Assembly: GCA_035758565.1 (NCBI GenBank)
Contig: DASTXL010000002.1
Location: 275,118-339,117 of the forward strand
From: Candidatus Saccharimonadales bacterium
GTDB taxonomy: Bacteria > Patescibacteriota > Saccharimonadia > Saccharimonadales > UBA10212
Reading direction: 5' to 3'
Length of the DNA: 64,000 bases
Below, in pieces: positions 2,641 through 63,011 of this stretch (the stretch's first letter is position 1; every line of letters starts with the position of its first letter). The translations under genes and the position numbers were made by a program. The notes beneath the pieces were generated by a model. The model saw only the letters and a program-made list of their open reading frames with translations, was not told the DNA's origin and did no database searches.

Positions 2641-3105
2641 ATGCCGGATATTGCCTTGGCCGTCCTGATATTAGTTCCGGCGGCCATCACATTCTTTCTT
2701 AAAAGCAACGCTGCGCTAAGTTATCTGGCGTTGTGCGCCGGCTTTGTTTTGAGTACGTCTGTTATTGGCGACCTAAAACATCTTTTAAGCGAAACGAACT
2801 TGAGTGTCACCAGTGATACACTGGCGCTGGTGCTTTTAATTGCTCCGTATTTGTTGACGCTTTTAGTTACCCGTAAGGTTCACGAAAAAGGGCTATTTTT
2901 GTATTTAAATTTGATAATCGCCTTACTGGGCGGCGGACTACTGGCCCTAAGCGCCGGACCGCTTTTCGGTTCGTCTTCCAACTTTGATATTGTTGATTCA
3001 AAATTTTGGACACAACTTTCTAATTACCAAGCTGCTATTATCGGCGCCGGCGCCGGACTTAGCCTACTTATGATTTGGTCAGGCCGTCATCACAAAAAAC
3101 ATTAA
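2641..3105 (+). CDS. hypothetical multi-pass membrane protein
   Basis: 154 aa, several hydrophobic segments, no recognisable domain. Confidence 0.4.
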   Translation: MPDIALAVLILVPAAITFFLKSNAALSYLALCAGFVLSTSVIGDLKHLLSETNLSVTSDTLALVLLIAPYLLTLLVTRKVHEKGLFLYLNLIIALLGGGLLALSAGPLFGSSSNFDIVDSKFWTQLSNYQAAIIGAGAGLSLLMIWSGRHHKKH

Positions 3106-3296
3106 TTATCTAGAGTTTTTATGAGGGTGGGCGGCAGGAATTGCCGGGCGGAAACTAAAATAACAGGAATGCTTAGAATTCCTGTTAGGTACTGAGCGAC
3201 AGTTATGTTTTCTCCTGCTTTAAAGATGTCATGAAAGAATAAGAAATCTACTGCTAAAAATCCTAGTATGAGTGCAATTGCTAATGTCTTTTTCAT
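3102..3296 (-). CDS. small hypothetical membrane protein
   Basis: 64 aa with two hydrophobic segments. Confidence 0.3.
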   Translation of the reverse strand: MKKTLAIALILGFLAVDFLFFHDIFKAGENITVAQYLTGILSIPVILVSARQFLPPTLIKTLDN

Positions 3297-3362
3297 ATCA
3301 ATATTTTACCACTATGTTTATCTAATAAAAAACAGCCCACCTCTATAGGTGAGCGTATTTAT

Positions 3363-3439: not shown

Positions 3440-3549
3440 TCGTCGAAGCTTGCGCCACTACCTCGTTTTGCCCGTGGGCAAAAGCTTCGGTTTATGGCTA
3501 CGCTTCTCCTCTCAAGATTTTAAACAGCTACACTTGGTTTAAAATCTTG
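3440..3549 (-). repeat. structured tRNA 5' leader element, copy 1 (abuts tRNA-Lys UUU)
   Basis: Hairpin, then AGAGGAG, GCC, CGAAGC-hairpin(TTTTGCC/GGCAAAA)-CGAGG, GGCGCAAGCTTCGACGA, then tRNA +1. Confidence 0.75.
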
Positions 3550-3655
3550 GGTTAGCTGCAGAGCCTGCAAAATAACACCTTACATTATCTGTTTTTTGGG
3601 CAAAAAGTCAACCGTCCGGCTTTTCAAAACGCTTAAGCCAACTTATGATTTATTC

Positions 3656-6396: not shown

Positions 6397-7827
6397 ATGA
6401 GGCGGTACAAAAGAACCACCTTGATAACAGTTGGCTGCCTGGCGGCGCTAGCCGGGCTGGGTCTGGCGCGCAAGCTGCAATTCTTTCCGCCGGAGTGGAT
6501 TTTTATTTTTTGGCCGGCGCTACTCATTCTTCGGCGCCGTACAGCTCTCGGCCTGATTTTGGTAGTAATTTTAGGTTTAGGATTAGGACTCTGGCGCGGC
6601 GCGGCATATAGCCATAAGCTGGCCGAGCTAAAATCGCTAGCTACCCATCCGGTGACAATTGAAGCCACTGCGCTCACAGACTCTGTTTATGGCAACAATT
6701 CGCAGATACAATTTACCGCTAATCAAATTCAGCTAGTCGAACCCTATCAAAAACCACTGGCTGGCACATTTAAAATCAGCGGCTTTGGTGTGCATATGAT
6801 TTATCGAGGCGATCGCGTCGAAGTTTCTGGCAAACTATATCCAACTCGTGGCTCTAATCAAGCGACCATTGCTTATGCTCAGCTGGCCGAAATTTCTACC
6901 GGGCATAGTTTCTTTGCCGATATTTCTAGAAAGTTCACAACTGGCATGCAGAACGCTTTGCCGGAACCTTTAGCTAGTTTTGGGCTTGGTCTTTTGGTGG
7001 GATTGCGAACAATAATGCCGCAGGACATTCTGAATCAATTAACTGCTGTTAGTTTAGTTCACATAGTGGCGGTTAGCGGTTACAACCTAACGATTATTGT
7101 TCGTGGTATTGCCAGGTTAAAAATCCGCTCCAAATACCAAAGAACAATGTTGTCACTGGCTTTAATCGGCCTATTTGTGATGGTGACCGGTTTCAGCGCT
7201 TCAATTATTAGGGCAGCTTTGGTAAGTGCTCTAAGCTTGTGGGCGGCCTACTATGGGCGTCGGGTTAAACCGATGGTGCTTATCAGCTTTGCGGCCGCTC
7301 TGACCGGGCTTATGAACCCATTTTATGTATGGGGCGATTTGAGCTGGTACCTGTCTTTCTTAGCCTTCTTTGGAATTTTAATAATCGCGCCAACTATTCA
7401 GGCGCGGTTGTTTAGCCGGCAGCCAAAATTAATAACAGCTGTGTTGCTAGAAACATTGAGTGCCGAGCTCATGACTCTGCCGTTAATAATGATGAGCTTT
7501 AGTCAGTTGTCGATAATATCTCTGCTCGCTAATCTGTTAGTTGTGCCGCTTGTGCCACTGGCGATGTTACTCGCGGCGACGGCTGCCTTTGTGGGCGCGT
7601 TACTACCTCAACTAGCTGGTTGGTTTGCCTGGCCGGCCGTGGTGTTGCTAACTTATATGCTCGACGTGGTGCATATTCTTGCCAATATTCCATCGGTGCT
7701 ACTACATACATCTATCAGTGTGAATTTAATGCTGACATTCTACGTAATTCTTTTGCTTAGCGTATTGACTATGAGGCGTCGAGCCCGCATGAAATTATCC
7801 GAGATTGAAACTGTGCTAATAAGGTAG
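6397..7827 (+). CDS. comEC: ComEC/Rec2 family DNA uptake channel (no beta-lactamase domain)
   Basis: 476 aa polytopic membrane protein with an N-terminal DUF4131-like region and a competence domain (LVHIVAVSGYNLTI). Confidence 0.75.
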   Translation: MRRYKRTTLITVGCLAALAGLGLARKLQFFPPEWIFIFWPALLILRRRTALGLILVVILGLGLGLWRGAAYSHKLAELKSLATHPVTIEATALTDSVYGNNSQIQFTANQIQLVEPYQKPLAGTFKISGFGVHMIYRGDRVEVSGKLYPTRGSNQATIAYAQLAEISTGHSFFADISRKFTTGMQNALPEPLASFGLGLLVGLRTIMPQDILNQLTAVSLVHIVAVSGYNLTIIVRGIARLKIRSKYQRTMLSLALIGLFVMVTGFSASIIRAALVSALSLWAAYYGRRVKPMVLISFAAALTGLMNPFYVWGDLSWYLSFLAFFGILIIAPTIQARLFSRQPKLITAVLLETLSAELMTLPLIMMSFSQLSIISLLANLLVVPLVPLAMLLAATAAFVGALLPQLAGWFAWPAVVLLTYMLDVVHILANIPSVLLHTSISVNLMLTFYVILLLSVLTMRRRARMKLSEIETVLIR

Positions 7828-8595: not shown

Positions 8596-9069
8596 ATGAG
8601 AGTGCTTGGCATCGACCCCGGAACGGGAATCCTGGGTTTTGGCGTGATCGACTGCCAGAAAGGCAAGAATATTTTAGTTGACGCTGGCGTAATCCGTACG
8701 CCAGTCAAAGAAGACGATGCCGTGCGTCTGCAAACAATCTTCGAAGAACTAAACGATATTATTGCTGCCACTAAGCCAGACCAAATGTCGATAGAGAAGT
8801 TATATTTTTCTCAAAACGTGACTACGGCTATGACAGTCGCGCAGGCTCGCGGCGTCGCAATTCTCGCCGGCAAATTAGCAGGTCTAGAAATTGCTGAGTA
8901 TACGCCGCTGCAAATCAAGCAAGCGATAACCGGCTACGGCAAAGCCGACAAAAAACAAATGCAAGAAATGGTACGCGTCCAGCTTGGCTTAAAAGAGGTG
9001 CCCAAGCCGGATGACTGTGCCGACGCCCTGGCCGCCGCCATAACCCACGCCTCGTGTAGAATTAAATAA
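8596..9069 (+). CDS. ruvC: crossover junction endodeoxyribonuclease RuvC
   Basis: MRVLGIDPGT...; yebC-ruvC-ruvA order. Confidence 0.9.
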   Translation: MRVLGIDPGTGILGFGVIDCQKGKNILVDAGVIRTPVKEDDAVRLQTIFEELNDIIAATKPDQMSIEKLYFSQNVTTAMTVAQARGVAILAGKLAGLEIAEYTPLQIKQAITGYGKADKKQMQEMVRVQLGLKEVPKPDDCADALAAAITHASCRIK

Positions 9070-9070
9070 G

Positions 9071-9643
9071 ATGATTGCAGTATTAGACGGGAAAGTATCA
9101 GAAAAGCTCGGCGACCTAGTTATCGTGACTTGCGGTGGGGTAGGTTACGGCGCATTTGTGTCGTTCGAAGACTTCGGGTCTTTAAATGTTGGCGAGCCGG
9201 CCAAACTCTACATTTACGAGCACATCCGTGAAAATACCCATGACCTATTCGGTTTCCGCTCGCTAGAGACCAAGCAGTTGTTCGAGCAACTGCTGAGCGT
9301 GAATGGAGTTGGGCCAAAAATGGCGCTGGCGATCTTATCGATCGCCTCCAGCGCGCATGTCCGCACCGCCATCGCCGGTGGCGACACCAAGTTTATTAGC
9401 CAAGCTCCAGGCGTAGGCAAGCGAGTCGCCGAACGAGTAGTAGTTGATTTAAAAGATAAAGTCGGCCTAGCTGCTAGCGAGGGCGCCACAGAATTTTTGA
9501 CCACTAGCGCAAACCCTAACGATGAAGCTTTGCAGGGTTTGGTAGCCTTGGGCTACAGCGTTCAAGACGCTGCTGAAGCTCTAAAAAAAGTAGACAGTAA
9601 ATTGCCTCCAGAACAAAGGATCAAAGAAGCGTTGAAAGGATAA
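9071..9643 (+). CDS. ruvA: Holliday junction DNA helicase subunit RuvA
   Basis: HhH motifs (LLSVNGVGPKMALAIL, FISQAPGVGKRVAERV). Confidence 0.9.
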   Translation: MIAVLDGKVSEKLGDLVIVTCGGVGYGAFVSFEDFGSLNVGEPAKLYIYEHIRENTHDLFGFRSLETKQLFEQLLSVNGVGPKMALAILSIASSAHVRTAIAGGDTKFISQAPGVGKRVAERVVVDLKDKVGLAASEGATEFLTTSANPNDEALQGLVALGYSVQDAAEALKKVDSKLPPEQRIKEALKG

Positions 9644-12092: not shown

Positions 12093-12117
12093 TGGTGGGG
12101 CTGGTTGGATTTGAACC
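12093..12117 (-). repeat. duplicate of the 3' terminal 25 nt of tRNA-Ile2 (T-arm half, acceptor, CCA)
   Basis: tggtggggctggttggatttgaacc is identical at 12093-12117 and 12138-12162. Confidence 0.85.
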
Positions 12118-12137
12118 CGACTATGATAATGAAGTTT

Positions 12138-12213
12138 TGGTGGGGCTGGTTGGATTTGAACCAACGACCAATCAGTTATGAGCCGACTGCTCTAACCCCT
12201 GAGCTACAGCCCC
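12138..12213 (-). tRNA. tRNA with CAU anticodon, probably tRNA-Ile2 (lysidine)
   Basis: 76-nt cloverleaf, loop CTCATAA. Variable/T region TTGGTCGTTGGTTCAAATCC resembles E. coli ileX. tilS is present in the window. Confidence 0.7.
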
Positions 12214-20800: not shown

Positions 20801-21832
20801 ATGGCTATCGAACGAATTGTGAACACTGCTGGTCCGACAGATGATCCAGCAGAGGAACAATTAGAAAACTCTTTGCGTCCACGTGATTTTGCTAATTATG
20901 TTGGCCAGGAACGCTTAAAGAAAAACTTAAAGCTAGCTATTGATGCTGCAAAGAAACGTGGCGAGGCAATCGACCATATTTTGCTCTATGGTCCGCCGGG
21001 TTTGGGCAAAACCACCATGGCAACTGTAATTGCCAACGAAATGGGCGCCCAAATTAGAATTACAAGCGGCCCGGCAATTGAACGGGCCGGTGATCTGGCT
21101 AGCTTGCTCACTAATTTGCAAGACGGCGATATTTTATTCATTGACGAAATTCACCGTCTGCACCGAACAGTCGAAGAAGTCCTGTACAGTGCCATGGAAG
21201 ATTTCAAGTTAGACATTATGCTTGGCAAAGGGCCAAGTGCTCGCAGCTTACGCTTGGACTTACCTAAGTTCACAATCATCGGCGCCACCACTCGCACCGG
21301 TTCGCTGGCCGCTCCTCTGCGAGACCGTTTTGGCTTAATTCATCGTCTAGAGTTTTATGCTCCGGATGAAATCGGTAGAATTATTAACCGCTCAGCCAAG
21401 ATTTTGAATGTTCCGGTTGATAAAAAGGCTGCTGGCCTACTAGCTGAACGCTCTCGTTTGACACCGCGCATAGCTAACCGTTTGCTAAAACGCGTGCGTG
21501 ACTATGCCGATATTAACGGTGACGGAATTATTGACGAAAAGGTCGCCGGGCAAGCTTTGAAGCTGCTCGAGATTGACGAGCTTGGCTTAGACCCATCAGA
21601 CCGCCAGCTTTTGACTGCGATAATCGAGCATTACGACGGCGGCCCGGTTGGTGTTGAGACCCTGGCAGCCTTAACTGCCGAAGAACGAACAACTATCGAA
21701 GACGTTAACGAACCATACCTGATGCAGATCGGCCTGTTAGAGCGTACGCCGCGGGGCCGCAAGGCAACATTGCGTGCTTGGAAACACTTAGGTAAAAATC
21801 CGAAAACCAAAGAGCAGGCTAGCTTGCTATAA
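20801..21832 (+). CDS. ruvB: Holliday junction DNA helicase RuvB
   Basis: [15 protein letters not shown]. Confidence 0.95.
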
Positions 21833-22932: not shown

Positions 22933-23084
22933 AAAATTATTACCTCCAAATTATAGCATAAGCGTGTTATCAACTTCTCTACAAAAATAGCTAACGCTTA
23001 AATAGAAGTAAATGCAGCAACATTTTTCACGTACCGGCAAAAACCAGCTATACTATTTATACGTATTTGATGAGGAGGTATAAG

Positions 23085-24107
23085 GTGGCAGATAAGACAA
23101 AAGCACCAACGAGCGATAAGGCCGCTAGCGGCAAAGAGCAGGCGCTGAAATTAGCAGTTGACCAGATTGAAAAGCAATTCGGTAAGGGCAGCATTATGCG
23201 GTTGGGCGAAGCCCACGCGGCAAATGTCGAGACCATTCCAACCGGCAGCTTAAGTTTAGACTTGGCCCTGGGCGGCGGTATTCCAAAAGGCCGCATCATA
23301 GAAATTTATGGTCCGGAAAGTTCTGGTAAAACCACGGTTTGCCTGCACGCCGTGGCCGAAGTTCAAAAATCCGGTGGTACGGCTGCCTACGTTGATGCGG
23401 AGCACGCGCTCGATCCGGCTTACGCCAAGCGCTTGGGCGTTAATATTGATAATCTTTTGATAAGCCAGCCAGACAGCGGCGAGCAAGCACTAGAAGTTGT
23501 CGAGACTTTGGTGCGGTCTAACGCCGTTGACATTATTGTTGTCGACTCGGTAGCAGCACTTGTGCCACAAGCGGAAATCGAAGGCGATATGGGCGACGCC
23601 CACATGGGCTTGCAGGCCCGCTTGATGAGCCAAGCCTTGCGCAAACTAACCGGTATTATCAGTCGCACCAAGTGCACGGTTATATTCGTCAACCAGCTGC
23701 GCATGAAGATTGGTGTGATGTTTGGCAACCCAGAAACTACAACCGGTGGTAACGCGCTGAAATTTTATGCCAGCGTACGCATGGATATCCGCCGCATTAG
23801 CCAAATTAAGCAAGGCGATGCCGTAATCGGCAATCACTGCCGAGTAAAAGTAGTCAAAAACAAGATCGCTCCGCCGTTCCGCGAGGCCGAATTCGACATT
23901 ATGTACAATCAAGGTATTAGTCGCGAAGGTGACGTAATTGACCTGGCTGTAGCTCACAACGTAGTTGGTAAATCGGGTGCTTGGTTCGAATACGAAGGCC
24001 AAAAGATTGCCCAAGGCCGCGAAGCCGCCAAGAAGTATCTAGCCGACAATCCAAAAGTTTTCGAAAAAGTCGCCGAGCAAACCGTTGCCGCCGCCACCAA
24101 GGAATAA
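23085..24107 (+). CDS. recA: recombinase RecA
   Basis: GPESSGKTT and L1/L2 regions. GTG at 23085 sits 6 nt after the GAGGAGG RBS; the ORF track starts earlier at 23067. Confidence 0.95.
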
Positions 24108-31497: not shown

Positions 31498-31944
31498 ATG
31501 ATCAAAGCTATTCTGTTCGATAACGACGGGGTAATGTCTAAGTGGTTATTGCCCCGGTTTAGAATGCGGCGGCTGGCTAAGCAGCTTAGGCAAGATGGAA
31601 TCAAGGTTGGCATGCTGTCTAATGTCATCTGGGGGTTTGCGCAAGTTTATAAGTTAACGCGAGGCTATGACGGCTACGATTTAGTACTGCTGTCGTATAA
31701 AGAAAAAATGTCTAAACCCAATCCGGACTTTTATATGCTGGCGGTTAAAAAATTTGGCTTAAAACCTCACGAAATACTTTTTGTCGACAACCGAGAGGAT
31801 CTACTTGTTCCCGCTCAAAAGCTTGGTTTCAAAACCCTGCACTCCAAATCGGCCAGACAACTGCTTGTAGATATCAATCATTTGTTAAGCAAAGAAAATA
31901 AAAGACCGCCTAAAAGACACCCGCATCTAATTGGGCGAGGATAG
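31498..31944 (+). CDS. short HAD-superfamily hydrolase-like protein
   Basis: LFDNDGV motif I, SKPNPD, VDN. Confidence 0.5.
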   Translation: MIKAILFDNDGVMSKWLLPRFRMRRLAKQLRQDGIKVGMLSNVIWGFAQVYKLTRGYDGYDLVLLSYKEKMSKPNPDFYMLAVKKFGLKPHEILFVDNREDLLVPAQKLGFKTLHSKSARQLLVDINHLLSKENKRPPKRHPHLIGRG

Positions 31945-32066
31945 AGGACAACGCTTTCGCTTGCTCCACCGAACCTCCGACTATTGTCAGCTTCGCCGCC
32001 GAGTGGCAGACCGGGCCTTATCTCAAAGATAAAAATAAGCTCACCAAAAGGTGGGCGTATTTTTTA

Positions 32067-32143
32067 TGGTCGGGGATAGAGGACTCGAACCTCCGACCTC
32101 GCGGTCCCAAACCGCGCGCGCTAGCCAACTGCGCCAATCCCCG
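32067..32143 (-). tRNA. tRNA-Pro(UGG)
   Basis: 77-nt cloverleaf, loop TTTGGGA, encoded CCA. Confidence 0.9.
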
Positions 32144-33271: not shown

Positions 33272-33348
33272 CGGGGTGTGGCGCAGTTGGCTAGCGCGCA
33301 GCGTTCGGGACGCTGAGGTCGGAGGTTCAAGTCCTCTCACCCCGACCA
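33272..33348 (+). tRNA. tRNA-Pro(CGG)
   Basis: 77-nt cloverleaf, loop TTCGGGA, encoded CCA. Confidence 0.9.
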
Positions 33349-33523
33349 ATAAAAGCTGACCAATAAAATTTGGTCAGTTTTTATTTATTGAGAGTACAAC
33401 TTAAACCGATAGGCATGAATAGCCAGTTGGCTGTTCATGTTTTCCTTGCTTGACCGCCTTGCGCAATTGCTTTAGCAATTTTGTCGCAGGCGCATGATAA
33501 CTCAAGTCCTCTCACCCCGACCA
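33349..33523 (+). repeat. tRNA-trailing module: terminator, ~150-nt insert, then 22-nt repeat of the tRNA-Pro(CGG) 3' end
   Basis: tcaagtcctctcaccccgacca at 33327-33348 and 33502-33523. Confidence 0.8.
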
Positions 33524-35176: not shown

Positions 35177-35905
35177 TTAGGCTACGGGTACGACTTCGGC
35201 GACAAGCGCCAAGTGATCACTAATAGGAAGTCGGGGAGCTTCCACTCTCCGGAGCCGTAACCTATTTAGGGCAATGTGGTCAATCTGTCTGGTTGGAGCC
35301 CATGACGGATTTGTTGGCGGCCCCTCAATTACGTTAAGACCATGCTCGCTCATGCAGTCACGGGCTTCGGTGAGTTCAATATTGTAATCACCCATCAAAA
35401 TGTGAGGACCGCTACGCTGTAATAAAGCTGTTGCTGCGCGTCCAAGCATTTCGCGATTTTTTCTACCCCCAGTATGAGTTACGCCGACAGATAGCTCGCA
35501 GCCTCGAATTGCCGTCGTGGCCATAATCATATTTCGTGGCTCCGGCAAAAATTCGATGCATTGGCCCATAAGCTTGAATCTTTGCCAATCGCCTTTTAAT
35601 TTCAGTACCTCAACATTTCTAATATCGCCTCTTACCAATAGAGCATTGCCAACTCGACCTTTGCCGCGGTAGGTGCGCGTCTTAGCAAACACGTAGTTCA
35701 TTCCTGTGGCTTCTGCAGCAATTGCCGCCAGATCAATCTTTTTGGAGCGCGGTACGCCTACGTCTACTTCCTGCAGTCCAAGAATATCGGCGTCGAGCTC
35801 TTTACAGGCTGCGGCTACCAAGCCGGGATAACCGCGGCCGTAATCACCTTTTGCTCCATGCTGAATGTTAAAGGAAGCTACTCGGATTGAATCTGCCCCT
35901 GTCAT
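35177..35905 (-). CDS. endonuclease/exonuclease/phosphatase (EEP) family protein
   Basis: SFNIQHG, LGLQEV, SDHLAL motifs. Confidence 0.7.
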   Translation of the reverse strand: MTGADSIRVASFNIQHGAKGDYGRGYPGLVAAACKELDADILGLQEVDVGVPRSKKIDLAAIAAEATGMNYVFAKTRTYRGKGRVGNALLVRGDIRNVEVLKLKGDWQRFKLMGQCIEFLPEPRNMIMATTAIRGCELSVGVTHTGGRKNREMLGRAATALLQRSGPHILMGDYNIELTEARDCMSEHGLNVIEGPPTNPSWAPTRQIDHIALNRLRLRRVEAPRLPISDHLALVAEVVPVA

Positions 35906-35945: not shown

Positions 35946-36122
35946 TGGTACCCCCCGGCAAGATAGCGCCACGCTTCTCCGCTCACAAATGCTCGGAATA
36001 AATTCCTGCGCGTTTGTTCGCTGCGCCGAACTTGCGACTTGCGTCAGCTGTCGCTGCCGCGTCGCAAAACCGAATCTGTCAGAAGACCATAAAAATAGCC
36101 CAGACAAGCTGGGATATTTTTA
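35946..36122 (-). repeat. tRNA-trailing module behind tRNA-Arg(UCU), ending in a repeat of its 3' end
   Basis: tggtaccccccggcaagat (35946-35964) versus tggtacccccggcaagat (36123-36140); internal gcaagttcg T-arm half at 36027-36035. Confidence 0.8.
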
Positions 36123-36199
36123 TGGTACCCCCGGCAAGATTCGAACTTGCGACCTTGAGCTTAGAAGTCTCCTGCTCTATCCAACTGAGCTACGGGGGC
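36123..36199 (-). tRNA. tRNA-Arg(UCU)
   Basis: 77-nt cloverleaf, loop CTTCTAA. The anticodon stem has only 3 Watson-Crick pairs (27:43 and 31:39 mismatched). Confidence 0.75.
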
Positions 36200-36313
36200 T
36201 CGTCGAAGCTTGCGGCCTTGTCTCGTTTTGCCTGCTCGGCAAAAGCTTCGACCTTGGCCTAGGCTTCTCCTCTAAAATTTGTGAGCAAGACAACTACTTG
36301 CCTCACAAATTTT
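36200..36313 (-). repeat. structured tRNA 5' leader element, copy 6
   Basis: Hairpin with aggcaagtagttgtcttgct apex, AGAGGAGAA, GGCC, CGAAGC-hairpin-CGAG, GGCCGCAAGCTTCGACGA. Confidence 0.75.
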
Positions 36314-36372
36314 GTTGCTACTGACTGGCCTAATGGCCACATCGTCTTCAGCTTATCGCTACTCCTCCTCTA

Positions 36373-41540: not shown

Positions 41541-41592
41541 TAATCTAATTATACTTCGCTATAGCAAATTGTGGGTGCTACAATGGTTCTAT

Positions 41593-42135
41593 ATGAGTAA
41601 TACCGACTCAAAGGGAGAATACAAGCTGTTAGGTCAGCAGCTAAAGGCCTTGCGTTCACGAGTTAACGAAAGCTTGGCCGAAGCCAGTGGCGCCGTAGAA
41701 ATTGACGCCCGAGAACTTGCCAGTTTTGAGCTGGGCGAGAAATGCCCGAGTGAAGATGTTTTGCTGCTTTTGATAAGTCACTTTGGCGCTCAAGATGACG
41801 AGGCTGTTAAGTTGTGGGAGATGGCCGGTTACGGATCAAGTAAGGTGCCTGTAGTCCAGATGCGAAACGAGCCCACTATCCAGCCGGTTCAAAACCAAGA
41901 AAACCGTGTATTATTTACCGATGTAGTTGATGTGGTAGTTAATAACTACGGCGTGGTTATGAATTTCCTGCAAGGCGGGAATCCTAATAGCGGACCGGTA
42001 ACTGTAGCTAGAGTTGGCATGAGTCGTGAACACGCCAAAAGTGTTTTAGAAGTGTTATCTGCGACTTTATCGCAAGTAGAGAAACAAAATCAGCTGCATA
42101 AAAAACAAATAACCGATCAGAATAAGACAGTTTAG
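41593..42135 (+). CDS. HTH (XRE-like) protein with a DUF3467-like C-terminus
   Basis: ATG at 41593. N-terminal HTH-like region; C-terminal VARVGMSREHAKSVLEVL. Confidence 0.5.
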   Translation: MSNTDSKGEYKLLGQQLKALRSRVNESLAEASGAVEIDARELASFELGEKCPSEDVLLLLISHFGAQDDEAVKLWEMAGYGSSKVPVVQMRNEPTIQPVQNQENRVLFTDVVDVVVNNYGVVMNFLQGGNPNSGPVTVARVGMSREHAKSVLEVLSATLSQVEKQNQLHKKQITDQNKTV

Positions 42136-42146
42136 CGTACACTTGG

Positions 42147-42161
42147 TATAATTACCCCTGT
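42147..42161 (+). promoter_or_regulatory. stable-RNA promoter motif TATAATTACCCCTGT (tRNA-Arg UCG)
   Basis: Identical to 33214-33228; lies 16 nt upstream of the tRNA. Confidence 0.5.
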
Positions 42162-42176
42162 CCCTGCCTGATTTCT

Positions 42177-42253
42177 GCCCGCGTAGCTCAGTGGATTAGA
42201 GCATCTGTCTTCGGAACAGAGGGTCGGCGGTTCGAATCCGTCCGCGGGTACCA
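42177..42253 (+). tRNA. tRNA-Arg(UCG)
   Basis: 77-nt cloverleaf, loop CTTCGGA, encoded CCA. Confidence 0.9.
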
Positions 42254-42432
42254 AAATAAAACCTCCAGCTTGTCTGGGTTTTTGTTTTGGTAATTCTGCC
42301 CGGCAGAATTGAACCGCCGAGGCGGTGCGGCGTAGTGAAAATCGCGCGCAAGAATTTATTCTGAGCACGATTGAACGAAGAAGTGCTTGCTCAGAGAGCA
42401 AGTGTGCGATATCCGTCCGCGGGTACCAAAAT
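42254..42432 (+). repeat. tRNA-trailing module behind tRNA-Arg(UCG), ending in a 22-nt repeat of its 3' end
   Basis: atccgtccgcgggtaccaaaat at 42236-42257 and 42411-42432; internal ggcggtgcg T-arm half at 42321-42329. Confidence 0.8.
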
Positions 42433-42437
42433 CACTT

Positions 42438-43004
42438 ATGAATATTGTAGACAGCGAAGATAAGATATCCCAACTTATTGAAGCCGACGATTGGATGATG
42501 AAGGTCTTAAACGCCGCATCCACACTTAATTTGCCGGACTGGTGGATTGGCGCGGGTTTTTTGCGGAACAAGATCTGGAATTTTATGGAAGGTAAAAGTC
42601 CAGAGCCATCGCGCGATGTAGACCTGGTTTATTTTGATAGCAAAAACAAAACAGAAGAGGCAGACTGGAATTATGATGCTAAAATGTCGCTTCTGTATCC
42701 CTTTGCGGAATGGGAGGTTCGCAACCAGGCCAGGATGCACTATGTGAATAATTTCGAGCCTTTTATGTCTACATCTGACGGAATTGCGCACTGGGTAGAA
42801 ACAGCGACTTGCATAGGGGTGCGTCTGACTGGTAAAAGACTTGAATACTTATTTTGCTATGGCACCGCCGATCTGTTCGGGCTAGTAGCCAGACCAACAC
42901 CTTACTTTAGTGCAGACAAAGAACTTCTCAAAAAATTCTTTTATCGCATAGACGAGAAAAATTGGAAAAACAAGTGGCCTCACCTGCGCATTGAGACTCA
43001 CTGA
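42438..43004 (+). CDS. nucleotidyltransferase family protein (PF06042-like)
   Basis: WWIGAGFLRNKIWN...RDVDLVYFD. ATG at 42438; the ORF-track start lies inside the repeat. Confidence 0.5.
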   Translation: MNIVDSEDKISQLIEADDWMMKVLNAASTLNLPDWWIGAGFLRNKIWNFMEGKSPEPSRDVDLVYFDSKNKTEEADWNYDAKMSLLYPFAEWEVRNQARMHYVNNFEPFMSTSDGIAHWVETATCIGVRLTGKRLEYLFCYGTADLFGLVARPTPYFSADKELLKKFFYRIDEKNWKNKWPHLRIETH

Positions 43005-44866: not shown

Positions 44867-44943
44867 GGGCCATTAGCTCAGTTGGTTAGAGCAGCGGCCT
44901 CTTAAGCCGCGTGTCCGGGGTTCGAGTCCCCGATGGCCCTCCA
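44867..44943 (+). tRNA. tRNA-Lys(CUU)
   Basis: 77-nt cloverleaf, loop CTCTTAA, encoded CCA. Confidence 0.9.
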
Positions 44944-45132
44944 AAAATAGAGCCGCACTTTAGGTGCGGTTTTGTTTTTGGAACGCTTAATCGAGCAAGC
45001 CAACTGCTTGGCTTGCGTGGGGCTCGAACAGGCGCAGCGATGTCGAACAATTCAGCGAGACCGCGAGCCGGGCCCGCGAGCGAAAAGCAAAGCTTTTCGA
45101 CTTGTGGGTCGAAGTCCCCGATGGCCCTCCAA
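44944..45132 (+). repeat. tRNA-trailing module behind tRNA-Lys(CUU), ending in a 20-nt repeat of its 3' end
   Basis: agtccccgatggccctccaa at 44925-44944 and 45113-45132; extra T-arm half GGGGCTCGAA at 45019-45028. Confidence 0.8.
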
Positions 45133-45280
45133 GCATAAGCGCTATAAAGGTGCTTAGAATTCCAGACCTTTCAAGTTAAGCCGAATACATTTGTTGCAAT
45201 AGCCTCCACTATGTCCCTCCAGCTTGGTTTATGCTGAAACTTCTCTACTGCGAGGAGTTTTTTATTGCTATTCTTTGACT

Positions 45281-57077: not shown

Positions 57078-59261
57078 GTGCAAGATTTACTAGCTGAGCT
57101 TAATGATGAGCAGCGGCGGGCGGTCGAGGTAACCGAGGGCCCGCTTTTAATTCTGGCTGGTGCGGGTAGCGGCAAAACCAAGACCCTGACCCACAGGATT
57201 GCTTACATATTGGAGCAGCATAAAGCTACGCCTTTTAATATTTTGGCCGTGACATTTACAAATAAGGCTGCCGGCGAAATGCGCGAGCGCATCTGGAAGC
57301 TTACACAAGGTGGTAATGCCGGCGATGACATTCCGCGCGGCTTCATGCCTTTTATGGGTACTTTCCACAGCATTTGCGTGCGGTTGCTGCGTCAGGACGG
57401 CGAGGCCTTTGGCGTTCCGCGTAACTTCGTAATTTGGGATGAGGCCGACCGCCAAGCGGCCGTTAAACAAGCCGCTCGGGCGCTAAGTCTTGATGAAAAG
57501 CAGTTTCCAGCGCGCATGTTGAGCTCGTTGATTTCCAGCGCCAAAAACGAAATGGTTAGCCCGGCCGAGTTTGCAGCAACCGCCGGTAATACCCCAGCCG
57601 CCCAAGCGGTTGCCAAGGTTTATCCGGCGTACGAACGACTGTTGCGCGAGGGCGCCGCATTAGACTTTGACGATTTAATTAGCCGTACAGTACAGATGCT
57701 GAAAGATCACAAACAAATCCGCGACAAATGGCAACAGCAATTCAAGTACGTAATGGTTGACGAGTATCAAGATACCAACGCCGCTCAGTACCGCCTGGTG
57801 AAACTTTTAACCGGACCGCATAAAAATATTGCCGTGGTTGGCGACGACTGGCAAAGTATTTATTCTTGGCGCGGCGCCGACTTTAGAAATATTCTTAATT
57901 TTGAAAAAGATTATCCAGGTTGTGTGGTTATCAAGCTTGAGCAAAACTACCGTAGTACCAAGAATATCTTGGAGGCCGCCCATAAAGTTATAAGTCAAAA
58001 CCGCCAGCGCAGTGATAAAAAACTGTGGACGGCCAGCGCCGCCGGATCTCCGGTACAGGTTTTGCCGGTTGCCAGTGAGCGGTCCGAGGCCGAAACTATT
58101 GCCCGCCGTATAAAAAACGCCGTTGATATGCGCGCTCGCAATTATCACGATTTTGCTGTTCTTTACCGCACCAACGCTCAGGGCCGCGCTATTGAAGAAG
58201 TTCTGCTCCACTACGGTTTGCCGTACAGAATTGTTGGCGGGGTGCGTTTTTACGACCGCAAAGAGATCAAAGATATTGTTGCCTATTTACGCTTAATTTA
58301 TCAGCCGGACGATACGGCGGCCTTTGAGCGAGTAGTAAACGTGCCGACTCGGGGCATTGGTCCACGCTCTATAGAAGTTTTTAACGAGTGGCGGCAAACT
58401 AATAACTATTCCTTAAGCCAAGGCTTAGCTATGGTTGAGCAATGCGCTGAACTGACACCCAAAGCTCGGCTTGGCCTAGTTCAACTTGCTGATATTGTTG
58501 CGAGTTTTCGTGAGCAGATGAGCGAACAAATCCCATCGGTCTTGATTGACAGTTTAGTCAAAAGGTTGAACTATCTTAATTATTTGCAAGACGGTTCGCC
58601 GCAAGGGGATGCCCGCGCCGAAAACGTCCGTGAGCTTTTGAGCGTGGCTGCCGAGTACCAAGACGTGGGTCTTGATGATTTTTTGGAAGAGGTTTCGCTA
58701 ATTACTGACCTAGAACGCGCTAACCAAGAACCCGACTCAATCGTATTAATGACTCTGCACTCTGCTAAGGGTTTGGAATTTCCGGTTGTTTTTATGACTG
58801 GCCTTGAGGAATCCATTATGCCTCACAGCCGAGCACTTTATGATGCCAACGAAATGGAAGAAGAGCGCCGGTTAATGTACGTAGGAATGACCCGCGCTCG
58901 GGAGGAACTATTTTTGAGCTACGCCACTGAGCGAACTTTGTTTGGTGGTCGCCAGCATAATCCGCCGAGCCGGTTTATTTCCGATGCTGGAATAACTTCG
59001 GTAGCCGAGCCGGTTTATGCACAGTCTGGCTTTGGACAAAGAAAGTTTGAATCATCTTCTGCTAATGATTACTCACCGCTTGCTCCTTCAAGTGATGAGC
59101 CGCGCTATGTGCCAGAACTTGAAGAAGGCGATGGCGTGCGTCACCAAATATTTGGCGTTGGCACGGTGTTGGAATTAGATGGCGATACGGCTACGATTTA
59201 CTTCAAGGGCAAGGGTAGCAAGCGCCTAAACATATCTTTTGCCCCGATTGAAAAGTTATGA
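57078..59261 (+). CDS. pcrA: ATP-dependent DNA helicase PcrA/UvrD
   Basis: AGAGSGKT, DEYQDTN, TLHSAKGLEF, VGMTRA. Confidence 0.9.
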   Translation: MQDLLAELNDEQRRAVEVTEGPLLILAGAGSGKTKTLTHRIAYILEQHKATPFNILAVTFTNKAAGEMRERIWKLTQGGNAGDDIPRGFMPFMGTFHSICVRLLRQDGEAFGVPRNFVIWDEADRQAAVKQAARALSLDEKQFPARMLSSLISSAKNEMVSPAEFAATAGNTPAAQAVAKVYPAYERLLREGAALDFDDLISRTVQMLKDHKQIRDKWQQQFKYVMVDEYQDTNAAQYRLVKLLTGPHKNIAVVGDDWQSIYSWRGADFRNILNFEKDYPGCVVIKLEQNYRSTKNILEAAHKVISQNRQRSDKKLWTASAAGSPVQVLPVASERSEAETIARRIKNAVDMRARNYHDFAVLYRTNAQGRAIEEVLLHYGLPYRIVGGVRFYDRKEIKDIVAYLRLIYQPDDTAAFERVVNVPTRGIGPRSIEVFNEWRQTNNYSLSQGLAMVEQCAELTPKARLGLVQLADIVASFREQMSEQIPSVLIDSLVKRLNYLNYLQDGSPQGDARAENVRELLSVAAEYQDVGLDDFLEEVSLITDLERANQEPDSIVLMTLHSAKGLEFPVVFMTGLEESIMPHSRALYDANEMEEERRLMYVGMTRAREELFLSYATERTLFGGRQHNPPSRFISDAGITSVAEPVYAQSGFGQRKFESSSANDYSPLAPSSDEPRYVPELEEGDGVRHQIFGVGTVLELDGDTATIYFKGKGSKRLNISFAPIEKL

Positions 59262-62620: not shown

Positions 62621-63011
62621 GGGGCTGATTTAAGCTCGACGATCGGACATTAACAAATTTAGATGGCAGGTCGGTAAAGCACTGAACGTTATCCGGTGCA
62701 AGCCAATAACTGGCAACAAACTTACAGCTGCTATCGACAGCGTTCTCGCTAGTCGCCAGCCAGCTTACGCAGCCTAATTTAGGTTGCCATCGGCTATTTT
62801 GACGCCAGATAGAAGTATCAGCCGGTGTCATATCATCTGGACGCTCTGAAGCTTTCGGTAATCCGCCGAAGCTTTAGCTAAGATTTCCTGGATTGCCACC
62901 AAGGTTTTTTGACCGTTTCAAGCCTTGGTTTAAGTATCCAAACGGCCTAAGCCTGTAGTCATCAAATTTGTTACCAATCGGACGCGGGGGCAGTACCCGC
63001 CAGCTCCACCA
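62621..63011 (+). ncRNA. ssrA: tmRNA (SsrA)
   Basis: 5' GGGGCTGATTT, 3' GGACGCGGG..CCCGCCAGCTCCACCA, G3:U70. Internal reading frame ends ...ASRQPAYAA-TAA (stop 62775-62777); terminator at 63016-63045. Confidence 0.85.

Follow-up and report, generated by a model that had tools for sequence, protein, structure and literature searches.

Short structured modules behind tRNA genes of Saccharibacteria that end in a copy of the tRNA gene's 3′ end

Genomic islands integrated into tRNA genes (tDNA islands) are recognized by an intact tRNA gene followed by a cognate 3′ fragment, and comprise T-loop and T/acceptor crossover classes (PMC4383910; Williams 2002 as cited there). The attP site measures approximately 250 bp, and the program Islander rejects candidates shorter than 2 kb (PMC4383910). 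The window analyzed here, a stretch of 64,000 nt from Candidatus Saccharimonadales bacterium (assembly GCA_035758565.1, contig DASTXL010000002.1), carries much shorter units, which we call modules: behind two of its tRNA-Arg genes lies a structured segment that ends in a copy of the preceding tRNA gene's 3′ end. Other described systems also bear on these modules. Cis-mobilizable elements (CIMEs), known from streptococcal integrative and conjugative elements (ICEs), are attL-attR units without recombination genes. Integron attC sites and the attP(+) site of the CTX phage recombine as folded single strands. Guide-bearing transposon RNAs include the omega-RNA of TnpB and IscB and the bridge or seek RNA of IS110 and IS1111. 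Finally, the primer-binding site (PBS) of retroviruses and long terminal repeat (LTR) elements comprises 18 nt corresponding to tRNA nt 59-76, CCA included.

A reading of the window made from the sequence alone had described tRNA-Arg(UCG), a terminator, a module of approximately 150 nt and an exact repeat of the tRNA end, and this arrangement was recovered in full. Genes for tRNA were called by ARAGORN, RNA families by Rfam 15 and protein domains by Pfam. The tRNA-Arg(UCG) gene (42177-42253, plus strand; Rfam tRNA, 67.9 bits) encodes its CCA. A 22-nt repeat, ATCCGTCCGCGGGTACCAAAAT, was identical at 22 of 22 positions between 42236-42257 and 42411-42432, and no longer exact direct repeat occurred in the 8.5 kb of the window that were examined. 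The left copy consists of the last 18 nt of the tRNA (nt 59-76) plus AAAT, and the right copy, the tail, is the same sequence displaced downstream (plus strand). Between them, all on the plus strand, lie a terminator-like palindrome, T1 (42250-42291; A-tract, stem TCCAG/CTGGG at 42264-42278, T-tract), whose outer arms take in the ACCA of the tRNA itself; a hairpin recognized in the sequence, X (42292-42310; aattctgcc cgg cagaatt); an inverted copy of the T-arm 5′ strand and T-loop, A′ (42306-42320; gaattgaaccgccga), which is 87% complementary to 42224-42238 and pairs with the following segment; a direct copy of the T-stem 5′ strand and T(G)CG, A″ (42321-42329; ggcggtgcg); and insert I (42330-42410), composed of a helix P3, an apical hairpin within a core at 42347-42367, and a hairpin S4. 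Directly past the tail, at 42438, starts a gene with a Pfam NTP_transf_6 domain, and an exact look-up of its protein returned no record.

The second module lies on the minus strand behind tRNA-Arg(UCU) (36123-36199; ARAGORN, Rfam). Its T1 (36086-36126) has 18-nt arms that are 94% complementary. It is followed by X and A′ (36061-36085), the latter matching the 3′ part of the tRNA in degenerate, inverted form (inverted alignment) and containing gattcggttttgcgac; by a hairpin H (36039-36060) at the tip of the A′:A″ stem; by A″ (36027-36038), an exact 12-nt copy of tRNA nt 46-57 (gtcgcaagttcg); and by insert I (35965-36026), with its core at 35990-36010. The tail (35946-35964) is tRNA nt 59-76 with one extra G: the exact repeat atcttgccggggg is found at 35952-35964 and 36128-36140, and the tail runs on as atcttgccgggg(g)ggtacca. 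This module therefore ends, as the sequence-only reading had noted, in a repeat of the UCU tRNA. The next gene after the tail encodes an Exo_endo_phos domain (35177-35905, Pfam).

The proposed homology of the two segments was confirmed. Both share the terminator core CCAGCTTGTCTGGG, at 42265-42278 and at 36099-36112 (the end had been placed one base too far, at 36113); two matches with at most two mismatches were obtained in 2 of 100 shuffles. Both also contain the core CGCGCA[A/G]GAATTTATTC[T/C]GAGCA, with GCA...GAGCA at 42348-42367 and 35990-36009. For the GAATTTATTC block, 0.03 matches were expected by chance, and none of 100 shuffles gave two. The two cores differ by A..T (UCG) versus G..C (UCU), a compensatory change in the hairpin. 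Both modules were matched by the covariance model built for the family (42324-42417, 58.7 bits, E = 1.9e-11; 35958-36032, 76.8 bits, E = 9.7e-16). Outside the core they were only 40% identical, which is below the family average; thus, neither recently seeded the other. From the tRNA outward, the order of a module is T1, X, A′ (the T-arm and variable-loop region, inverted), H, A″ (a direct copy that ends in TTCG), insert I (60-80 nt) and a tail that begins at nt 58/59. The module looks like the 3′ third of a tRNA (nt ~44-76) with insert I splitting its T-loop and with its left half repeated, inverted, in front.

The modules belong to a large family. A scan of species-representative genomes with a single exact pattern, CGCANGAATTTATTCNGAGCA, found the module core at 62 loci in approximately 50 assemblies, nearly all of them metagenome-assembled genomes of Saccharibacteria and with several loci per genome. 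Searching with the covariance model yielded 75 hits. In all, 104 loci were fetched, which are denoted by L-numbers. The same architecture in approximately 50 independent assemblies, including two complete chromosomes (CP064992 and OY970356), excludes an assembly artefact in practice. Wherever a tRNA was detected, with a single exception, the core was located 86-126 nt past the tRNA gene, and the host genes were those for Asp, Gln, Asn, Leu, Arg, Glu, Ser, Trp, Met, Ala, Tyr, Phe, Lys, Val and, judged by tails, Pro. The initial framing around two tRNA-Arg genes thus correctly placed both in one family, but it was too narrow: the phenomenon spans tRNAs for at least 15 amino acids, as well as the protein gene smpB.

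In the wider family, too, the repeat tracked the adjacent tRNA, as had been proposed for the two Arg genes. The last 16 nt of the adjacent tRNA recurred at 14 of 16 or more identical positions in 28 of 50 modules, compared with 1% of non-cognate pairs. The exact copies in these 28 modules measured 12-19 nt or more. Among them, the repeat up to the CCA measured 18 nt in 15 and 19 nt in five, the tail started at nt 58/59 in 20, and the repeat ended at the CCA without extension in 14; others ran 1-5 nt past it (4 nt in the window). The T-stem 5′ strand in A″ was identical to that of the tRNA in at least 16 of 48 modules versus 1.9% of controls. Among the 41 copies found in all fetched sequence, 33 ended 153-209 nt past the end of their tRNA. 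All tRNA genes seen encode CCA. Scaffolds and matched segments varied separately: in L050 (Asp) and L057 (Met), the inserts were 93% identical and X and H were similar, whereas the matched segments were wholly different. Insert identity was 0.43 within genomes and 0.47 between genomes, and 0.44 versus 0.46 when grouped by tRNA, so that inserts cluster by neither. A recent intragenomic burst or concerted evolution was considered and rejected, because identity within genomes did not exceed that between genomes.

Two further observations concern tails. Tails of tRNA-Ser, which has a long variable arm, were cut after 7-13 nt far more often than those of other tRNAs (L013, L028, L031, L040, L044, L045, and L058). 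Behind the tRNA-Arg(UCG) of L067 (approximately 3050-3310, minus strand), a module with a different insert has a tail (atccctcagggggtacca) from another tRNA-Arg-like acceptor stem; hence, tail and adjacent tRNA can be mismatched.

The structure of insert I is conserved by covariation. In a first alignment of 31 hand-chosen sequences, 83% of the cells were paired and 40 showed a double change, compared with 12 in shuffled data (0 of 500 shuffles reached 40). In a second alignment, of 54 covariance-model-aligned hits and so fitted to the model, 89% of the cells were paired, with 125 double-change cells versus 30 in shuffles (0 of 500 reached 125); compensatory changes occurred in 15 of 18 pairs, and slid controls were 26-52% paired. 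The apical hairpin between the invariant CGCA and GAGCA covaries as GGAAT/ATTCC, GAAGC/GCTTC, GGAGT/ACTCC, CAAGC/GCTTG and GGAGC/GCTCC, including in hits that lack the search pattern. Mismatches of the G:U and A:C types numbered 19 and 33 in insert I and 10 and 11 in the A′:A″ stem, without strand asymmetry; the structure may act as RNA or as single-stranded DNA. A pairing of X with the tail as an acceptor stem, which would make a tRNA-like minihelix, was rejected: the 5-bp match occurs in the UCG module of the window only and is not conserved. On the window, Rfam at the gathering threshold returned only tRNAs and the transfer-messenger RNA (tmRNA), and permissive Rfam scans gave nothing above chance. 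Literature searches found no account of these tRNA-trailing modules; the group I introns in tRNA genes of Patescibacteria are a different phenomenon (PMC13011429). With no Rfam family and nothing in the literature, the module family appears to be undescribed so far.

Comparison of orthologous sites showed that the modules are not fixed. Relatives were chosen whose glyA protein was 88-92% identical to that of the window, and a second set comprised 35 metagenomic loci whose tRNA-Arg has the same 3′ half. In L098 (glyA, 90%), the identical tRNA-Arg(UCG) is followed 4 nt later by a gene, without a terminator and with different cargo. Both Arg sites are empty in L099 and L100, where an F420_ligase gene directly follows tRNA-Arg(UCG); compared with L099, the window has the module and the NTP_transf_6 gene between the tRNA and F420_ligase. 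The UCU site is empty in L103 and occupied in L104 by a module with a degenerate core. Most of the 35 metagenomic loci were empty, and variant modules were present in L083/L093, L067, L075 and L081. Empty sites, which the sequence-only reading had suggested looking for in related strains, thus exist in L098, L099/L100 and L103, and the modules are not present at every orthologous site. Because T1 is missing from empty sites, the terminator comes in with the module.

Two further differences were seen at these loci. A tRNA-Arg(CCG) gene lies between an HTH_31 gene and tRNA-Arg(UCG) in L098, L103, L104 and L075, and is not present there in the window (41569-42253). In L081 (1-260), an ortholog of the UCU module of the window, with A″ again gtcgcaagttcg, lies behind tRNA-Arg(UCG) and lacks a matching tail. 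Transposition between tRNAs was considered for L081 and set aside for a rearrangement, possibly an inversion, that would have joined inverted tRNA-Arg loci, which are 6 kb apart in the window.

Altogether, 6 of the 12 tRNA genes of the window are followed by a copy of their own 3′ end: two by the core modules described, one by a decayed core module (Pro-UGG), one by a module of a second family, B (Pro-CGG), one by a third type (Lys-CUU) and one by a bare duplicate (Met). Behind tRNA-Pro(UGG) (32067-32143), the family-A module (31932-32066, minus strand) retains the terminator and A″ (gtcggaggttcg), with the insert cut to 20 nt by loss of P3 and the core and with two mismatches in the tail. L101 has an orthologous module, similar in X-A′, and the two copies decayed differently: the window lost P3 and the core and acquired the two tail mismatches, and L101 lost the end of the tail. 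The family-B module (33349-33523, plus strand) behind tRNA-Pro(CGG) (33272-33348) ends in a 22-nt exact copy of nt 55-76 (33502-33523) and has a homolog behind tRNA-Arg(CCG) in L104. The third type (44944-45131, plus strand), behind tRNA-Lys(CUU) (44867-44943), consists of a terminator, an inverted T-arm (tggggctcgaac), approximately 70 nt of structured sequence and an uninterrupted copy of the T-arm and 3′ end, the latter exact over 19 nt at 45113-45131. The tRNA-Met gene (12138-12213) has a plain 25-nt copy of its nt 52-76, 20 nt past the gene (12093-12137, minus strand) and without a structured insert. Behind the tmRNA of the window (62621-63011), a copy of the tmRNA 3′ end was sought and not found.

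Past the tail of the Lys(CUU) module, at 45132-45142, lies a palindromic motif, AGCATAAGC / GCTTATGCT, which is also found within a few bases 3′ of many Saccharibacteria tRNA genes (L063, L070, L085, L087, L090-L092, and L097). It may be a processing, termination or recombination signal.

Modules also occur in arrays and with cargo. In L059, a complete genome (CP064992), tRNA-Met is followed by a module with its tail, then by a Fic-family gene and lastly by a second insert I with a truncated tail. In L005, tRNA-Asn, module and tail are followed by 2.6 kb of orphan open reading frames (ORFs), a second T1-X-A′-A″-I cassette with an internal deletion and another tail. Tandem or nested units, some with other insert families, were found in L042, L018, L009 and L049, and each of the nested inserts in L018 comes after TTCG. 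Insertion is not confined to tRNA genes: at smpB (L024, 392-455, minus strand; L056, 1069-1150, minus strand), a variant of insert I directly follows the stop codon and is itself followed by a diverged second copy of the SmpB C-terminal coding sequence, with TACGAT as the left flank compared with TTCGAT in the tRNA modules of type 3 that carry the same insert variant. The tail of SmpB was apparently replaced in the L024 and L056 lineages. In L047, the insert comes after a displaced tRNA-Met 5′ half that is split in the anticodon loop, and the intact gene lies downstream. In every case, insert I abuts a displaced fragment of a neighboring, restored gene.

Two loci stand somewhat apart. In L049 (minus strand), the first 20 nt of tRNA-Val (gggcgattagctcatttggc) are copied approximately 115 nt upstream of the intact gene, with the D-loop broken by an unrelated insert; this upstream copy is the 5′-side counterpart of the 3′ modules. 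In L029 (4148-6172, minus strand), two modules with tRNA-Pro tails lie 1.9 kb apart with a Mur-ligase-family ORF between them; ARAGORN found no intact tRNA in this 8-kb locus, and the upstream tRNA-like positions are 3′ fragments only.

The association with tRNA genes of a displaced 3′ fragment, the break in the T-loop, the restoration of the gene, the accretion of units, the smpB case and a size close to that of an attP site lead us to read the modules as miniature, non-autonomous, gene-free integrative elements that enter the T-loop and restore the tRNA, with the repeat as a duplication of the attL/attR type. We regard the chances of this reading as evenly balanced. The element would enter the tRNA gene at the T-loop, between nt 56/57 and nt 58/59, and would bring a replacement for nt 58/59-76 together with its own terminator, leaving the tRNA intact. 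The original 3′ end would be displaced downstream and survive as the tail; the repeat would track the tRNA because one copy is the working end and the other its displaced original. A conserved scaffold (T1, X, H and the three-helix insert I) would carry three target-matched segments, namely, A′ (nt ~44-57, inverted), A″ (nt ~44-56) and the tail. Folded as a single strand, A′ would pair with A″, and insert I would branch off at the break point before the tail. Insertion would proceed by site- or structure-specific recombination, and modules could be lost through deletion between the 18-22-nt repeats. The enzyme is presumably encoded elsewhere, since the modules, the cargo examined and the window encode none. 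Of the processes that the sequence-only reading had offered, gene conversion is unlikely for the tail, because no homology to the tRNA gene flanks the tail on either side; homology-facilitated recombination following DNA uptake is a candidate; and a CIME-like miniature integrative element proved the best available frame, although an incomplete one, as the unit is a structured cassette with three tRNA-matched segments and not merely an end repeat.

Several results weigh against integration of this kind. The module itself contains no ORF. In agreement with the earlier statement that the window lacks an integrase, a Pfam scan of its approximately 60 ORFs (a dozen without any Pfam match) detected no integrase, transposase, HUH enzyme or reverse transcriptase, and none was detected in the cargo of L005, L029 and L059. 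Clustering of 636 ORFs from 62 loci for an enriched neighbor returned housekeeping families only and no recombinase. Scans of IMG/VR with three module patterns gave 0 hits, and blastn against GenBank phages and PLSDB plasmids gave no module match. No direct sign of excision or of circles was seen. A classical integrase has one target, and near-identical scaffolds stand here behind different tRNAs (L050 Asp and L057 Met) with different matched segments, so that either a templated step must write the target sequence into the scaffold or a strong constraint must hold old copies near the consensus. The failure of inserts to cluster fits sequence constraint equally as well as spread from a master copy. 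A simple Campbell product would have A″ and the tail side by side, whereas they are split here by insert I, and the classical scheme gives the inverted copy A′ nothing to do. As an observation on gene content, the window encodes ComEC, RuvC, RuvA, RuvB, RecA and UvrD/PcrA (6397-7827, 8596-9643, 20801-21832, 23067-24107, 57078-59261), and the presence of ComEC, RecA, RuvABC and UvrD is consistent with natural competence and active homologous recombination.

The matching of three segments to each target raises the possibility, to which we assign a rather low probability, that the modules are the cis half of an unrecognized insertion system without an integrase gene of its own, in which a scaffold of RNA or of single-stranded DNA, the latter perhaps imported by competence, would recognize the TTCGA of the universal T-loop and copy three target segments on entry (the left half inverted, the left half direct, and the right half as far as the 3′ end of the gene); if so, the module would be a self-programming, gene-restoring, site-specific insertion cassette with integron-like carriage of cargo. 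Unlikely to a similar degree is a functional tRNA-trailing RNA, transcribed by read-through of T1 or from an unrecognized promoter, whose single-stranded 3′ tail, held out by the structured scaffold, would mimic the 3′ strands of the acceptor and T-stem plus CCA of its tRNA (as a decoy, a sponge or a partner of tRNA 5′ fragments) and whose segments would be kept by selection. Strong covariation of the three helices, invariant bases in the internal loop, the frequency of a terminator-like hairpin after the tail, the great excess of exact tails over non-cognate pairs and inserts that remain near the consensus irrespective of genome or tRNA, as under sequence constraint, all favor such an RNA. 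However, a canonical terminator directly precedes the module and no promoter is evident, the lack of a strand asymmetry in G:U and A:C mismatches allows the structure to be one of DNA, and Rfam has no match. Nearly half of the tails are truncated or decayed beside an intact insert, orthologous copies decay, close relatives lack the module, and the smpB case involves no tRNA mimicry.

The remaining explanations derive the repeats from other processes, and we consider each of them less probable. Template switching during replication (tandem inversion duplication) at the palindromes of the T-arm and terminator, with a later mini-insert I with hairpin ends, perhaps a palindrome-associated transposable element (PATE) of the IS200/IS605 type placed 3′ of TTCG in the spare T-loop, is quite improbable. 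It would account for the succession of tRNA nt 44-76, inverted copy and direct copy with turns at hairpins, and the Lys(CUU) module of the window has just such a direct-inverted-direct layout without insert I; TTCG or TACG always precedes insert I, hairpins lie close to each of its ends, the 5′ flanks of P3 and S4 are similar (GCGGAGCGAGGAC vs. GCGGAGAAGGAC), and the nested inserts of L018 obey the same rule. Against this stand the absence of the terminator from empty orthologous sites, which means that T1 was imported; the conservation of X and H across modules at different tRNAs, which likewise points to import and not to a local origin; the lack of sequence relationship between T1 and the post-tail hairpin; the absence of a Y1/HUH transposase or TnpB from the window and from the recurrent neighbor families; and the need for the same complex outcome to arise at more than 20 tRNAs independently of one another. 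A purely local tandem inversion duplication was rejected for T1, X and H on the first two of these grounds. We place still lower, as very improbable, a retro-insertion in which the mature tRNA would be used or copied by a reverse transcriptase and the resulting cDNA would recombine with the tRNA gene, the 18-nt tail being the stretch copied up to m1A58, by the logic of a retroviral PBS. The repeat of exactly 18 nt in 15 of 28 modules and its end at the CCA in 14 of 28 agree with this explanation, which would also retarget the tail automatically, but 19-nt tails include A58, the repeat of the window extends 4 nt past the CCA and others 1-5 nt, no reverse transcriptase was found in the window or cargo, A′ and A″ are left unexplained, and the duplication at smpB cannot derive from a tRNA. 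There is as little to recommend true CIMEs, that is, scars of integrase-carrying prophages or islands that lost their genes, with one lineage per tRNA. A tRNA gene with its fragment and tandem arrays are typical of islands (PMC4383910), and the cargo of Fic and orphan ORFs resembles islet content; random deletion, though, would not yield a fixed 153-209 nt, a conserved structured scaffold across more than 20 tRNA targets is not expected, and no integrase-bearing relative was found in 97 loci or in the viral, phage and plasmid collections.

If the modules are integrative elements, a conserved scaffold with three variable segments that fit both flanks of a universal tRNA feature, and that leaves its target intact, would represent a new logic of site-specific insertion, and the insertion enzyme, if found, would potentially be a tool. 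A module that is instead an RNA would stand for a new class of structured RNAs linked to tRNAs. Six of the 12 tRNA genes in the window, or half, carry insertions of less than 200 bp, which island finders drop because of their 2-kb minimum and which tRNA annotators may miscall as fragments. In Saccharibacteria, whose very small genomes show few other mobile elements, modules mark sites that vary and accept cargo, and they may be one of the main channels for gene flux in a lineage that is uncultivated and depends on hosts.

A separate structured element was observed on the 5′ side of some tRNA genes. A conserved leader of approximately 130 nt lies directly 5′ of tRNA genes at 36200-36335 and 3440-3575 of the window (both minus strand), in L101 (5′ of tRNA-Arg-tct and tRNA-His), and in L023 and L047. 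It consists, in order, of an AT-rich hairpin, GAGAGGAG, GAAGCTTTTGCC-loop-GGCAAAACGA and AAGCTTCGACGA, which touches tRNA nt 1; within it, GAAGCTT and AAGCTTC are able to pair. The leader is missing in relatives in which tRNA-Gly and tRNA-Arg are 8 nt apart (L099), and it had no Rfam match at the gathering threshold.

When the modules are compared with known systems, each resemblance is partial. In miniature inverted-repeat transposable elements (MITEs), the arrangement differs, as A′ and A″ are internal and derived from the target, the 18-22-nt duplication is the 3′ end of a gene, and no transposase was seen. Insert I might be compared with a PATE of IS200/IS605 for its position after TTCG or TACG and its hairpins near both ends, with no TnpA or TnpB in the sequence examined. 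The tail shares with the PBS its 18-nt span and its tracking of the tRNA used, but it has the tRNA sense, the CCA is sometimes passed, no reverse transcriptase or LTRs are present, and smpB does not fit. Like guide-bearing RNAs, a module may be viewed by analogy as a scaffold of approximately 80-150 nt followed by a variable segment that matches the adjoining DNA, on both sides and strands; unlike them, it has no adjacent TnpB, IscB or DEDD gene, its segments of 10-19 nt pair with each other, no omega-RNA of Rfam matches, and its RNA nature is putative.

The likeness to attC sites and to clusters of attC sites lacking integron integrases (CALINs) is likewise an analogy. It would extend to a length of 60-150 nt, to structure kept over sequence, to imperfect inverted repeats with ...GAAC/GTTC... 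ends that pair when the strand is folded (stem GAACC...GGTTC), to arrays with promoter-less cargo between sites (L005 and L059) and to a possible use of single-stranded DNA in a competent host. Modules differ in being anchored at tRNA genes, not at attI or dif, and in ending each in a copy of a tRNA 3′ end. The comparison with folded-strand recombination of attC and the CTX attP is a lead, not a test. With CIMEs, the modules share att-bounded DNA without its own recombinase, the enzyme being presumed to act in trans; CIMEs, however, are kilobase-sized, derive from a known ICE with a known integrase and have a single target, whereas modules are attP-sized and structurally conserved, and no integrase-bearing parent element that uses the same att site was found in the 104 fetched loci, in IMG/VR or in the phage and plasmid collections.

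The closest counterpart is the tDNA island of a tyrosine integrase. Such islands measure 2-200 kb compared with approximately 175 bp for a module, and modules differ from them in the lack of a nearby integrase, in the presence of one scaffold at more than 20 tRNAs, in the insert at the attR-like break point and in the inverted copy of the target. Of the features that Islander uses, modules possess the fragment and its start at one of the crossover sublocations (anticodon loop, T-loop or T/acceptor junction) and lack the integrase gene and a length of at least 2 kb. In both, nevertheless, a displaced fragment beginning in the T-loop lies in the same orientation as the gene, the gene is restored and units accrete in tandem; moreover, an island, as in the smpB case, can enter a protein gene at its 3′ end and bring a replacement for that end.

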